Shown here: positions 12,141 through 16,033 of the stretch, one piece after another
Numbering within the stretch: position 1 is the first letter of the stretch
Layout of the letters: each line of letters opens with the position of its first letter
Virus record (IMG/VR): IMGVR_UViG_2737471845_000026
Location: 1 to 20,408 of that record
From: a virus
Taxonomy: Duplodnaviria > Heunggongvirae > Uroviricota > Caudoviricetes
Length of the DNA stretch: 20,408 nucleotides
Direction: 5' to 3' (one strand)
Translations under genes and position numbers: made by a program
Notes under the pieces: model-generated
Database searches by the model: none
What the model saw: only the letters and a program-made list of their open reading frames with translations
Told to the model about the DNA's origin: nothing

Positions 12141-12566
12141 TTAATGCACAGCCAGAGTGTTTCCTGCCGGGCCACCACGATTCATCTGATCGAACAGAAC
12201 TATCGCTGATGCAACTAAATCATCGATATCTTTCACCAGCCGTTCCTGCGTCTCCACCAGCTCCCGAAAATAAGCGGAACTGTGGCTGCGCATTCGGGCC
12301 ACCAGCGGAGGCGGCATCGCTTTTTCGATAGCTGGTAACAACGCCTGAATTTTTTTAACCGCGTCAGGGGTATCTTTCTCCAGCCAGCGGAAAATTTTCT
12401 GGGTATTACGGCCCAGGGCTTCCGGATGGCTGTCGTCGAACAGTTCAGGAAACGTCAGACCCAACTCGAAATAAGCCCGGGTTATTTCAGCTGCCGGAAC
12501 TTTTTCACCGTCCGGATATGCCCAGGCATTCATCGCCATGCGGATGTGTTCATGCTTGATTTTCAT
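12141..12566 (-). CDS. YdaT-like protein (141 aa), putative CII-like regulator of the Rac-type immunity region
   Basis: N-terminus MKIKHEHI and size and position (after the cro-like gene, before replication genes) match Rac prophage YdaT as I recall it. Overlaps the upstream gene by 17 nt. Confidence 0.65.
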   Translation of the reverse strand: MKIKHEHIRMAMNAWAYPDGEKVPAAEITRAYFELGLTFPELFDDSHPEALGRNTQKIFRWLEKDTPDAVKKIQALLPAIEKAMPPPLVARMRSHSSAYFRELVETQERLVKDIDDLVASAIVLFDQMNRGGPAGNTLAVH

Positions 12567-12834
12567 GAATCAACCCTATTTTTTTGGATCTGATAATTTC
12601 TTCTGGAATCCCACTAACTGGAGTAGGGTGCAAATCAGGCCGGAGATCATGCGGAGTAACAATCCATTCCCCAAGCTCACAAAGCCTAATAACCCTCTCA
12701 CTAGGAACCCTGTTCCTGATAATCCAATTAAAAATGGATTGAGGCGATTTGAAACCAAACATGCGACTTACAGCAGAGGGAGAACCAATAGCCATAACCG
12801 CCTTTTCTGTAATGTTTTTGTATGTAGTGCTCAT
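12550..12834 (-). CDS. Cro/YdaS-like HTH regulator (94 aa from ATG 12834)
   Basis: First gene downstream of the operator-containing promoter, divergent from the repressor. SD GGAG 6 nt before ATG 12834; alternative ATG at 12846. Confidence 0.65.
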   Translation of the reverse strand: MSTTYKNITEKAVMAIGSPSAVSRMFGFKSPQSIFNWIIRNRVPSERVIRLCELGEWIVTPHDLRPDLHPTPVSGIPEEIIRSKKIGLIHENQA

Positions 12835-12861
12835 CGTTAACTCCATTTCAAGAACGGAAGA

Positions 12862-12889
12862 ATGATACTACATAAAGTAGAATTTGCAA
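12862..12889 (-). promoter_or_regulatory. PR-like promoter with an operator palindrome in the spacer
   Basis: Minus-strand -35 TTGCAA (plus 12884-12889), 16-nt spacer, -10 TATCAT (plus 12862-12867). The spacer contains the palindrome CTAC-N5-GTAG (12868-12880). Confidence 0.5.
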
Positions 12890-12934
12890 CTACGCAAAAT
12901 AGAAATGACGAATCAAGGTAACTGCTTTAATCTT

Positions 12935-12947
12935 CTACATATGGTAG
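12935..12947. promoter_or_regulatory. Second operator-like palindrome CTACATATGGTAG, overlapping the repressor ATG
   Basis: Same CTAC-N5-GTAG half-sites and same GAA flank as the site at 12868-12880; centred 67 bp away. Confidence 0.4.
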
Positions 12948-13393
12948 AAAACGCACATAAACATCGCGCATTCGCAACAAGACTTAAGTCAGAAATGGAT
13001 AGAAAAAACAAATCCATCAAAGACTTAAGCTTATCCACGGGCGTCACATACGAAATGGCGCGGCGCTACACCCTAGGCACAGCTAAACCACGCGACGAAA
13101 AACTCGAACGAATAGCAGAATTTCTGGGAGTTGAACCTGCATGGCTGGAATACGGTCAGCTAACAGAGAAAGGAATTGAACCAGCAGAAGATTCATTTGT
13201 AACACAAAGATCTGGTTCCAATAGCAATGGTGAATTTACTGAGTTAAGTGAAGATGAAAAGCGACTGATACGAACGTTTCGGGAGTTTCCACCAGTTGAA
13301 GCCAAGAATATGCTCCTGGCTTTTGAGATGAGGCTCAAGAAACTTTACGATTTCTACGAGAAATACGCCAGCACCCCACCACCTTCTGAGTGA
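12941..13393 (+). CDS. Prophage repressor, XRE/HTH family (RacR/cI-like), 150 aa from ATG 12941
   Basis: HTH KSIKDLSLSTGVTYEMARRYTLG; divergent from the cro-like gene with operator palindromes in between. Start is ambiguous (ATG 12941 without SD, ATG 12905, or TTG 12884). Confidence 0.75.
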   Translation: MVENAHKHRAFATRLKSEMDRKNKSIKDLSLSTGVTYEMARRYTLGTAKPRDEKLERIAEFLGVEPAWLEYGQLTEKGIEPAEDSFVTQRSGSNSNGEFTELSEDEKRLIRTFREFPPVEAKNMLLAFEMRLKKLYDFYEKYASTPPPSE

Positions 13394-13409
13394 CTTTGTC
13401 TGTTAACAA

Positions 13410-13437
13410 CACCCCGGTATTGCCGGGGTTATTTTTG
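13410..13437 (+). terminator. Rho-independent terminator after the repressor gene
   Basis: Hairpin CCCCGG-TATTG-CCGGGG (13412-13428) followed by TTATTTTT. Confidence 0.55.
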
Positions 13438-13489
13438 CCTTAAAAAACAACTTTATATAGACAAAATACAACACACTCTACTTTTGGTG

Positions 13490-13517
13490 TTGACATATCT
13501 ACTTCAAGTAGTATCAT
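13490..13517 (+). promoter_or_regulatory. PL-like promoter with an operator palindrome in the spacer
   Basis: -35 TTGACA (13490-13495), 16-nt spacer containing CTACTTCAAGTAG (13499-13511), -10 TATCAT (13512-17). Same architecture as the PR-like promoter at 12862-12889. Confidence 0.55.
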
Positions 13518-13590
13518 TCAATCATCAAAGCACAACGGTGCGACAGGTCTTAGTTCCGCTACCCCGGCGTTAAGGGGAAATGAGGTCAGC

Positions 13591-13743
13591 ATGGATACTA
13601 TCGATCTTGGCAACAGCGAATCTCTGGTATGTGGCGTGTTCCCCAACCAGGACGGTACGTTCACCGCGATGACGTATACCAAAAGCAAAACGTTTAAAAC
13701 CGAAACTGGCGCGCGTCGCTGGTTAGCCAGAAACACTGACTGA
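13591..13743 (+). CDS. Small protein, 50 aa, first gene of the PL-like transcript
   Basis: ATG 13591 preceded by GGGGAAATGAGG; translation MDTIDLGNSESLVCGVFPNQDGTFTAMTYTKSKTFKTETGARRWLARNTD; stop TGA overlaps an ATG of the next ORF. Below the 60-aa cutoff of the ORF track. Confidence 0.5.
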   Translation: MDTIDLGNSESLVCGVFPNQDGTFTAMTYTKSKTFKTETGARRWLARNTD

Positions 13744-14603: not shown

Positions 14604-15290
14604 TTTATCCTCCATTGAAGTTACTGGTTGAGAATGGAGACCACACGTGACAGCGTGTTGTCGTGCGCCGGACACGGATAAGAATCCGGCACTGACAGTT
14701 TACTGAAAGAATATATCCCTGAAAAGTCAGGGCATAACTCGAAAGCGCACGGCGGAGGTGTCTTTTCCTTAGAAGGCTTGTCGTTAGATTTCTTCGACCG
14801 TGCGCTTCCGGTTGTGGCACTCCGCGAAATGGCGCGGCGGTAAGTATGGCGGGGTTATCCTTACCCCATTAGTGGCACCGGGTTGTCAGGTTGACCATAC
14901 GCTTAAGTGACATCCCCGCTGCAACAACCCATGTTGATTACCTTTTGGCGGGTATCCGTTTTTTGTTTTCCCTTGTGATACCAGCCCTTTTTAAAGTGAA
15001 TTTTGTGATGCGGTGAATGCGGCTAAGCGCACGCGGAACAGTTAAAAAGGACAGTTGACATTCGTATTGGTTCTTATGGGTGGGTTATCTGTATCCGGCG
15101 TTAATTGTTAACTGGTTAACGTCACCTGGAGGCACCAGGCATCGCATCAACAAAATTCACTTCAGTGATGAAAGGTGAGAGAAAATGTTGAATGTAGCTA
15201 TTGAAAACCAGAACGGGTGGAATTATAGTGCACCTGCACCTCATAAAACGGGTGCCGGGATTTGCACCCCGATGATCACTAGAGCGCATA

Positions 15291-15312
15291 ACCGCGCCAA
15301 AGCGGTTTTTTT
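15291..15312 (+). terminator. Intrinsic-terminator-like hairpin plus U-tract inside the leader upstream of rha (possible attenuator)
   Basis: ACCGC-GCCAAA-GCGGT followed by TTTTTTT; embedded in a larger inverted repeat GCGCATAA...TTATGCG. Confidence 0.45.
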
Positions 15313-15478
15313 ATGCGTAAAGCGCAGCCACATTCAGATTATGGTGGGGCGTATGGGGCCGTTTTCGGGCGGGCCGGATTCTCTAGTGACCGGTAGTGCA
15401 AACCCTGTACGTCTCACCACCCATGAGATTTGCACCTACGGTGGTGAGTTTACCAACTTATCACTAGAGGCTGCCATC

Positions 15479-16033
15479 ATGGCTACTATCCCTACCCTGT
15501 CTCACCCTGACGTAACCATCGAAAACGGTCGCGCTATCACTACGTCTGTTGCGATCGCAGAGTTCTTTGGCAAACGACACGACAACGTGTTACGTGCCAT
15601 CGCAAACATTGAATGCTCAGAAAAATTTAACGCCCTCAATTTTGAGGACGTAACGTACACCGACGCCAAAGGCGAAAAACGTCCAATGTACCAAATCACC
15701 AAAAACGGCTTCGTTTTCCTGGTGATGGGCTTCACTGGCAAAAAAGCCGCTGCATTCAAAGAGGCCTACATTGCTGAGTTCGACCGCATGGAGGCAGAGC
15801 TGCGTCAGAATAACACCCCACCAACTGACAAAATAATTCCTGGCGATGGTCGCACTCTGGTTGTTCGCTTCGACGAACACGGCAATATCAAATTCACCGA
15901 AACCGTTCCTGATGGTGCAATGGTCTGTACTCTGGATACCTTCCAGTTTTATCTGGAGAAACAGGGATGGACACTTGTAAACCGGAGCGCAATTAGAAAC
16001 ATGACTGTCGAACAATTGCTGCGTATTAAATAG
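15479..16033 (+). CDS. rha: Phage regulatory protein Rha (Rha domain), 184 aa from ATG 15479
   Basis: Rha-domain signature VTIENGRAITTSVAIAEFFGKRHDNVLRAIANIE...ITKNGFVFLVMGFTGKKAAAFKEAYIAEFDRME; SD AGAGG 8 nt before ATG 15479. The in-frame upstream extension to 15185 is judged non-coding. Confidence 0.75.
   Translation: MATIPTLSHPDVTIENGRAITTSVAIAEFFGKRHDNVLRAIANIECSEKFNALNFEDVTYTDAKGEKRPMYQITKNGFVFLVMGFTGKKAAAFKEAYIAEFDRMEAELRQNNTPPTDKIIPGDGRTLVVRFDEHGNIKFTETVPDGAMVCTLDTFQFYLEKQGWTLVNRSAIRNMTVEQLLRIK

Follow-up and report, generated by a model that had tools for sequence, protein, structure and literature searches.

A predicted lambdoid immunity cassette with CTAC-N5-GTAG operator palindromes around a repressor of DicA-like architecture

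The DNA analysed here, referred to below as the window, comprises positions 1 to 20,408 of IMG/VR virus record IMGVR_UViG_2737471845_000026 (Caudoviricetes), 20,408 bp in all. We read positions 12550–13544, with a probability of roughly 85%, as the immunity cassette of a lambdoid prophage of the Qin/Rac/CP-933P type, in which palindromes of the form CTAC-N5-GTAG would serve as operators for the repressor and would most likely be shared by a YdaS-type Cro. This reading draws on the number of the motifs, their placement in promoter spacers, their ranks in a matrix scan, their conservation across taxa, their co-inheritance with the two regulator genes and analogous published switches; operator binding and repression are predicted from the sequence and from experiments published on Qin, Rac and CP-933P. 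Along the window, the order is ydaT (cII-like) and ydaS (cro-like), both pointing leftwards from promoter PR, then promoter PRM pointing rightwards into the repressor gene, a terminator, promoter PL and a ydfA-like gene. The cro-like and repressor genes are divergent, with 106 bp between them.

12941–13393, plus strand: immunity repressor, 150 amino acids (aa), assigned from Pfam HTH_3 together with a conserved first methionine and helix
12550–12834, minus strand: cro-like gene of the YdaS family, 94 aa (Pfam YdaS_toxin PF15943; PHROG 35, transcriptional repressor)

An earlier note, made from the letters of this DNA alone, had picked out three CTAC-N5-GTAG palindromes clustered around the repressor gene. 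An exact pattern search of the window bears out all three and their coordinates, with 3 matches against 0.11 expected (standard deviation 0.37), and 0 of 100 dinucleotide-preserving shuffles of the window gave three copies. The motif scan that the note had proposed as a check, run over the window, revealed no further perfect palindrome. The number of sites needs amending: the three perfect dyads stand, but they are not the whole set, as three further degenerate sites bring it to six. These are listed with their scores in a position weight matrix (PWM) scan; the palindromes carry no strand.

12868–12880: O1 (OR1-like), CTACATAAAGTAG, exact match inside the PR spacer; PWM 21.6, rank 2
12890–12902: O2, CTACGCAAAATAG, 1 mismatch (mismatch search); PWM 12.2, rank 4
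12935–12947: O3, CTACATATGGTAG, exact match over the predicted PRM start, holding the repressor ATG at 12941–12943; PWM 23.0, rank 1
13499–13511: OL1, CTACTTCAAGTAG, exact match inside the PL spacer, kept in relatives; PWM 18.1, rank 3
13478–13490: OL2 candidate, CTACTTTTGGTGT, 2 mismatches, abutting or overlapping the PL -35; PWM 2.4, rank 6
13448–13460: OL3 candidate, CAACTTTATATAG, 2 mismatches; PWM 10.8, rank 5

Relatives were collected by scanning one genome per species with the repressor alignment, which gave 40 loci. The 21-bp PWM was built from 103 clustered sites of other taxa only (loci L007–L046), leaving the window and its close Escherichia coli relatives out of the training, and the scan took in the whole 20.4-kb window. 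The six proposed sites occupy ranks 1 to 6, in a 3+3 layout of one operator region upstream of the repressor gene (OR, O1–O3) and a second one (OL, OL1–OL3) at the early promoter beyond it. O2, whose centre is 22 bp from that of O1, separates the -35 hexamers of PR and PRM, which stand back to back. In the second cluster OL1 is perfect, while OL2 and OL3 are degenerate yet positionally conserved. OL2 is homologous in position to a CTACTTTTnGTnT element directly adjoining the TTGAC -35 of the PL-like promoter in relatives, the OL3-OL2-OL1 centre spacings of 30 bp and 21 bp recur in two related loci (L007 and L009), and the counterpart of OL3 in a third (L001) has 1 mismatch. The extended operator consensus is TATTCTAC-TTAAA-GTAGAATA. 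A fourth site between O2 and O3 was considered and rejected; this stretch varies among relatives and corresponds to the PRM spacer.

The promoters and the terminator of the cassette are as follows.

12862–12889, minus strand: PR, -35 TTGCAA (12889–12884), 16-bp spacer, -10 TATCAT (12867–12862), from the promoter scan
12905–12933, plus strand: proposed weak PRM, -35 ATGACG (12905–12910), 17-bp spacer, -10 TAATCT (12928–12933), deduced from conservation
13411–13437 (also given as 13411–13429), plus strand: intrinsic terminator at the end of the repressor transcript, from the terminator scan (8-bp stem with 6 GC pairs, T-run)
13490–13517, plus strand: PL-like promoter (dicBp equivalent), TTGACA-16-TATCAT, 11/12 in the promoter scan

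Two of the dyads had been noticed to fall in the 16-bp spacers of TTGCAA/TATCAT and TTGACA/TATCAT promoters, and an independent promoter scan agrees, with O1 wholly within the PR spacer and OL1 wholly within the PL spacer. The description of these promoters as near-identical also holds, since their cores match at 22 of 28 positions and the -10 hexamer and its flanks (GTAGTATCATTC) are the same in both. The positions of the PR hexamers are kept in enterobacterial relatives. PRM is defined by an anchored alignment of the relatives, in which a hexamer of the ATGAC/TTGA type is conserved directly 3' of O2 and a second one, of the TAATCT/TAAACT/TATCTT type, is conserved and ends one base 5' of the O3 half-site. 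The 17-bp spacer between them varies across relatives while the two hexamers keep fixed positions. Transcription from PRM is predicted to start at or next to A12941.

The arrangement is conserved far beyond E. coli. The 40 loci come from Citrobacter, Buttiauxella, Pantoea, Serratia, Rouxiella and Morganella, from Haemophilus and Aggregatibacter, from many Acinetobacter and from Betaproteobacteria (Herbaspirillum, Pusillimonas and others), and in nearly all of them CTAC-N5-GTAG sites stand directly 5' of the repressor gene in the same O1-O2-O3 order. Two sequenced phages, Aaphi23 and Providencia PSTRCR_117lys, carry the triplet as well. Spacing is held across orders, at 22–24 bp from O1 to O2 and about 45 bp from O2 to O3, and O2 almost always has a weakened half-site (CTAC-N5-ATAG), whose form and position are kept from E. 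coli to Haemophilus and Acinetobacter. Over more than 40 related loci from several bacterial orders, the half-sites are conserved and the 5-bp centres vary freely. In 34 related loci there are 66 perfect sites: the 141-bp OR windows, together 4.8 kb, account for 49 of them, 76 kb of flank on the upstream side has none, and the other 17 are downstream, in OL-like clusters. The divergent partner gene in the related loci always belongs to the YdaS family.

The repressor had been described as lacking a peptidase domain, and its 150 residues indeed match only HTH_3/HTH_26 in Pfam, with no Peptidase_S24. An AlphaFold2 model (mean pLDDT, the predicted local distance difference test, 79) has a five-helix helix-turn-helix (HTH) domain at residues 9–71, a disordered linker at 75–100 and a C-terminal two-helix hairpin (104–114 and 118–143). 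The recognition helix comprises residues 37–45, YEMARRYTL, within an invariant block TYEMARRYT.G, and is unchanged in homologues down to 32–37% overall identity. Compared with DicA of E. coli K-12, the family profile gives an hhalign probability of 96.3% (E 1.5e-9) over both the HTH and the C-terminal hairpin, including an LSxxExxL...F..LP..E motif, and BLASTP of the repressor itself covers both domains at E 2e-5 and about 18% identity. In these comparisons the repressor is of DicA architecture, with an HTH, a linker and a helical hairpin. Foldseek matched only the HTH, to generic domains (434 Cro and repressor, SinR, P22 c2), and phmmer against the PDB found no close solved structure, with nothing below E 0.36. 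Homology to RacR was rejected, as no sequence similarity was detectable (E 0.32), and the K-12 e14 repressor YmfK was rejected as a member of the same specificity group, having neither the YEMARRY helix nor motif sites. The repressor gene is under purifying selection, with synonymous to non-synonymous codon changes of 22:8 and 27:8 against the relatives L002 and L003.

As the earlier note had remarked, the middle site overlaps the repressor ATG; the coordinates of O3 and of the open reading frame (ORF) place ATG 12941–12943 in the 5-bp centre of O3. Most betaproteobacterial relatives, and nearly every enterobacterial one, embed the ATG in the same way. The repressor probably starts at this codon. 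Three lines place the start there: the methionine at 12941 is invariant in the homologue alignment, the codon changes counted above for the region downstream of the ATG fall to 1:4 and 1:3 upstream of it, and the Prokaryotic Genome Annotation Pipeline (PGAP) starts the S24-type E. coli homologues at the O3-embedded ATG. The in-frame stretch 5' of 12941 is poorly conserved, its few conserved residues coincide with the -35-like and -10-like hexamers, and judged by its codon changes it is evolving like non-coding DNA. No Shine-Dalgarno sequence precedes ATG 12941 and the -10-like TAATCT ends 7 nt upstream of it; the repressor mRNA is probably leaderless and made from the weak PRM. The suggestion that the overlap reflects autoregulation or a leaderless transcript thus finds support in the conserved ATG within O3, the invariant methionine and the non-coding character of the upstream frame. 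Because the right half-site of O3, GTAG, encodes Val2 and the first base of Glu/Asp3, the protein has an invariant MVE/MVD N-terminus.

It is unlikely that the repressor is instead a longer protein of 162–169 aa, begun at ATG 12905 or TTG 12884 on a leadered mRNA, with O3 lying inside the gene as a site or roadblock. An open frame does reach back to 12884, a 162-aa form is annotated by PGAP in strain A25 and the extension appears in many database entries; the extension is nonetheless poorly conserved outside the promoter hexamers and shows the codon changes given above, Met 12941 is invariant, annotation of the S24-type E. coli homologues begins at the embedded ATG, and ATG 12905 has neither a Shine-Dalgarno sequence nor an upstream promoter. 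Annotated starts of the orthologous repressor in RefSeq/PGAP are themselves inconsistent, giving 162 aa (L001 3406–3894), 161 aa (L002 1862–2347) and 131 aa (L003 1996–2391), and none of them is the conserved ATG in O3. Annotation has probably been misled systematically by the leaderless arrangement.

Early in the repressor coding sequence, at 12983–13029, there is an 18-nt inverted repeat (CTTAAGTCAGAAATGGAT / ATCCATCAAAGACTTAAG). The first 100 nt of the repressor mRNA fold with z = -3.5, and 1 of 200 shuffles folds as well; a similar inverted repeat is visible in L003. The repeat could affect translation or stability of a leaderless mRNA.

Both regulators, the repressor and the YdaS-type Cro, co-vary with the motif in every locus, and for this reason the comparison cannot tell which of the two proteins reads the dyads. 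That only one of them does so, while its partner uses other sequences in the same intergenic regions, we consider quite improbable. Such a division is compatible with CP-933P, where the exact PaaR2 and YdaS sequences are unresolved and the footprints overlap (PMC8630535), and with Rac, where racR is not repressed by YdaS (PMC9638921). Against it, the recognition helix of the repressor is invariant across the motif-sharing loci, including those with three different C-terminal domains, the PL site is far from cro, in a place classically held by a repressor, and the aligned OR regions contain no second conserved repeat family. We retain the reading in which the dyads are repressor operators that Cro most likely shares.

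The distribution of the cassette in E. coli points the same way. Positions 12578–13544, containing cro, OR, the repressor gene and OL/PL, are present in only 9 of 5426 complete E. coli genomes; their flanks, formed by ydaT to the left and by the ydfA-operon leader to the right, are present in 4244 of the 5426. A rare core between common flanks is the mosaic pattern classically seen in an immunity region, with the two proteins and their sites passed on as one block.

In about 30 complete E. coli genomes the shared stretch is confined to the OR segment (window 12862–12949), at 76–78% identity, and is linked there to the gene of a 234-aa repressor with an S24 peptidase, the same recognition helix and a start at the ATG embedded in O3. 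Two examples are:

L048 2507–2587: OR segment of E. coli EC11
L049 2746–2826: OR segment of E. coli LP5-1

A C-terminal Peptidase_S24 accompanies the same helix in the E. coli EC11 and LP5-1 prophages, Aaphi23, the Providencia phage, Acinetobacter and Haemophilus, and a short hairpin C-terminus accompanies it in the window, Citrobacter, Pusillimonas and Herbaspirillum. In Beta proteobacterium L13 (L015 2543–3391), a 282-aa repressor with the same helix and the same O1/O3 sites has a longer C-terminus that matches neither S24 nor the DicA-like hairpin, a third and uncharacterised partner domain. Since the S24 form shares both the OR segment and the helix, cleavable and non-cleavable repressors of one predicted specificity coexist in E. 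coli. The short and S24 forms occurred together in 0 of 39 E. coli genomes, with about 0.05 expected, which makes the count uninformative.

On this layout we propose the following switch. In the lysogen, repressor dimers on O1 and OL1 would exclude RNA polymerase from PR and PL, silencing the leftward cro-ydaT-replication operon and the rightward ydfA...recE operon, respectively. O2, a conserved weaker site two helical turns from O1, would probably be filled cooperatively; it lies about 45 bp upstream of the predicted PRM start, placed to help RNA polymerase at this weak promoter, a stimulation modelled on lambda CI, DicA and PaaR2. Binding at O3, over the PRM start and the repressor ATG, would give negative autoregulation and/or shut-off of repressor synthesis by Cro. 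OL2 and OL3 would be degenerate auxiliary sites, and looping between OR and OL, about 630 bp apart, is possible if the C-terminal hairpin oligomerises. Because a DicA-like C-terminus replaces S24, derepression would come from an antirepressor or a stochastic flip to Cro rather than from RecA-mediated self-cleavage.

Several observations weigh against this reading. OL2 is weak by score alone, as its 2.4 is barely above the next, unrelated PWM match in the window at 1.7. PRM matches consensus at only 7 of 12 positions, which is below threshold, and was not called by the promoter scan; a weak consensus match is typical of activator-dependent maintenance promoters. In close relatives PGAP calls the longer, 162-aa ORF. 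The best consensus match is O3 rather than O1, unlike in lambda, where OR3 is the weakest site, and for this reason the occupancy order and the activation of PRM described above are guesses. For induction, a tblastn search of the window yielded no Rem homologue (nothing better than E 1.2), and the window has no convincing LexA box, with 6 one-mismatch matches against 5.6 expected by chance. The further notion that the sites are relics of a decayed cryptic prophage with no regulatory role or, in the extreme, chance palindromes is very improbable: OL2 and OL3 are degenerate in the window and the related E. coli elements Qin and Rac are defective prophages, but chance is excluded by the motif count and conservation, repressor and cro are intact, as are the three perfect sites, and the repressor gene is under purifying selection, and the Qin and Rac switches still function although those prophages are cryptic.

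The OR-like and OL-like interpretation of the operator clusters, already put forward from the sequence, is further supported by gene order and site positions that match the Qin, Rac and CP-933P switches, as well as by the cross-taxon conservation. One of the closest known layouts is dicC-dicA-dicBp of Qin in E. coli K-12, where a cro-like gene, the repressor and a promoter are likewise followed by a DUF1391 gene, ydfA. DicA is also a short protein with an HTH, a linker and a helical hairpin and no peptidase. Operators in Qin sit in the spacer of the cro promoter (Oc), at a middle position, over the repressor ATG and in the spacer of the downstream promoter dicBp, and the PL leader is nearly identical. 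DicA, which binds Oc, represses dicC and dicBp while activating its own gene dicA, and Rem acts as its antagonist (PMC3441716; bioRxiv 10.1101/2023.04.14.536235). The Qin operators are, however, of the TTAG-N6-CTAA type (Oc is TTGTTAGTCATAACTAACAA) rather than CTAC-N5-GTAG, its Cro is DicC rather than a YdaS-family protein, the repressors are only about 18% identical, and the Rem antirepressor of Qin has no homologue that we could find in the window.

In CP-933P of E. coli O157:H7, the cro and cII analogues are YdaS and YdaT as in the window, PR and PL have identical -35 and -10 elements with operators at both, and the repressor, PaaR2, lacks a peptidase. PaaR2 and YdaS footprint the shared intergenic region and regulate PR, PRM and PL, and the paaR2 mRNA is leaderless (PMC8630535), as is predicted for the window. 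Both elements also have the YdaT operator TTGATT-N6-AATCAA at the ydaS/ydaT junction (window 12556–12573). CP-933P differs in having four 18-bp palindromes at even intervals, with half-site GTTTAGTAA and a paaA2-parE2 toxin-antitoxin pair 3' of paaR2, which is absent in the window. The Rac switch has the order ydaT-ydaS-racR-ydaF in E. coli K-12 and a PL-like promoter with an operator in its spacer, 5' of the DUF1391 gene ydaF. RacR has three intergenic inverted repeats, with O3 overlapping the racR ATG (PMC9638921), an arrangement like that of the window. The RacR operators are TAGGC-N3-GCCTA, unlike the dyads described here, and RacR shows no detectable sequence similarity to the window repressor, as stated above.

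Lambda CI/Cro is a more distant parallel. It shares tripartite operators at a pair of promoters on either side of the repressor gene, a back-to-back PR and PRM, and a leaderless cI mRNA (a feature that is only predicted in the window), and 434 Cro/repressor and P22 c2 provide the closest HTH folds to the window repressor. In contrast, lambda CI has an S24 autocleavage domain that the window repressor lacks, the O2–O3 spacing is 45 bp in the window and about 23 bp in lambda, and the cII analogue of the window is the unrelated YdaT. The S24-type CI repressors of Aaphi23, the Providencia and Acinetobacter phages and EC11-type prophages share the helix, the O1/O2/O3 triplet and a YdaS-family Cro; their Peptidase_S24 C-terminus, presumably SOS-cleavable, stands where the window repressor has a DicA-like hairpin.

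Searchable literature returned no relevant paper for 'CTAC-N5-GTAG' or for four of the actual site sequences. The operator sequence alone appears to be undescribed, the layout being already documented in Qin, Rac and CP-933P. Compared at this level, the window almost certainly represents a fresh immunity specificity of a well-known switch class and not a new kind of system. It supplies a predicted operator map, of six sites and three promoters, for an uncharacterised immunity group, and it corrects the likely start of a repressor for which pipelines vary between 131, 161 and 162 aa. As it is apparently unreported in searchable literature and conserved far beyond E. coli, the consensus could be used as an immunity-group marker in genomes of Enterobacterales, Pasteurellaceae, Moraxellaceae and Betaproteobacteria.

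The least ordinary aspect of the system, on the sequence comparisons, is that its recognition module is conserved over several orders yet paired with alternative C-terminal domains. We tentatively suggest, as a possibility that is rather less likely than its converse, that one module, consisting of the YEMARRYTL helix, the O1/O2/O3 triplet and a YdaS-type Cro, is common to temperate phages of at least four bacterial orders and is joined to at least three C-terminal 'input' domains, namely the S24 peptidase, the DicA-like helical hairpin and the third domain of L015, with the window-type prophage acting as a natural 'ind-minus' super-repressor. Such a role is conceivable because the cleavable and non-cleavable forms share a predicted specificity in E. 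coli. If this were true, homoimmune SOS-inducible prophages, or infecting phages, would stay silent under a window-type prophage even in an SOS response, and induction of that prophage would have been rewired to an antirepressor controlled by a small RNA (sRNA). The system as a whole brings no new mechanism in concept; its main value is as a clean natural case of one DNA-binding specificity with different induction domains.

Lacking S24, the window repressor should not be cleavable through RecA. A candidate antirepressor module, tentatively identified from Rfam, Pfam, PHROG and promoter and terminator scans, lies downstream.

15201–16033, plus strand: candidate antirepressor module as a whole (tentative)
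15201–15229, plus strand: module promoter TTGAAA-17-TATAGT, from the promoter scan
15236–15312, plus strand: isrK-like sRNA with its own terminator (Rfam 68.6 bits)
15337–15424: C4-like antisense RNA, P1-type (Rfam 78.1 bits)
15470–16033, plus strand: Rha-domain ORF, probably from ATG 15470 (Pfam Phage_pRha; PHROG anti-repressor families)

In the Gifsy-1 isrK-orf45-anrP locus, AnrP is a predicted antirepressor (PMC4825925), and by its likeness to that locus the module is tentatively a candidate inducer. No CTAC-N5-GTAG site lies near 15201–16033. What appears to be a single 282-aa ORF contains the isrK and C4 matches, and the Rha-domain ORF is probably the true gene.

The genes and the further motif around the cassette are as follows.

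12141–12566, minus strand: ydaT-like gene, second of the PR operon (Pfam YdaT_toxin, E 3.7e-10; PHROG 163, CII-like transcriptional activator, E 7.6e-45)
12556–12573, no strand: YdaT operator (OM) motif TTGATT-TTCATG-AATCAA, exact match at the ydaS end and ydaT start codon
13591–13743, plus strand: first gene of the PL operon, DUF1391 (ydfA/ydaF-like; Pfam E 4.4e-28)

The YdaS_toxin assignment of the cro-like gene is a marginal pass, at 30.7 bits against a gathering cutoff of 30, and its partners in related loci score 38–73 bits. A GGAG Shine-Dalgarno sequence stands 8 nt 5' of its ATG at 12834, and PGAP annotates the equivalent 285-nt ORF in relatives. Leftward past ydaT lie DnaD-like and DnaC-like replication genes. 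In CP-933P the YdaT operator motif OM is footprint-defined and likewise located at the end of ydaS (PMC9986795); by analogy, the motif in the window points to an establishment promoter, PRE-like and under YdaT control, within the conserved left flank.

Between PL and the DUF1391 gene, the transcribed leader at 13544–13595 (…GTTCCGCTACCCCGGCGTTAAGGGGAAATGAGG…) is nearly the same as those that precede ydfA in Qin and ydaF in Rac, even though these elements have unrelated immunity cassettes. A CCCC…GGGG hairpin lies within the leader, which may act as a conserved RNA signal in, for instance, antitermination or processing.

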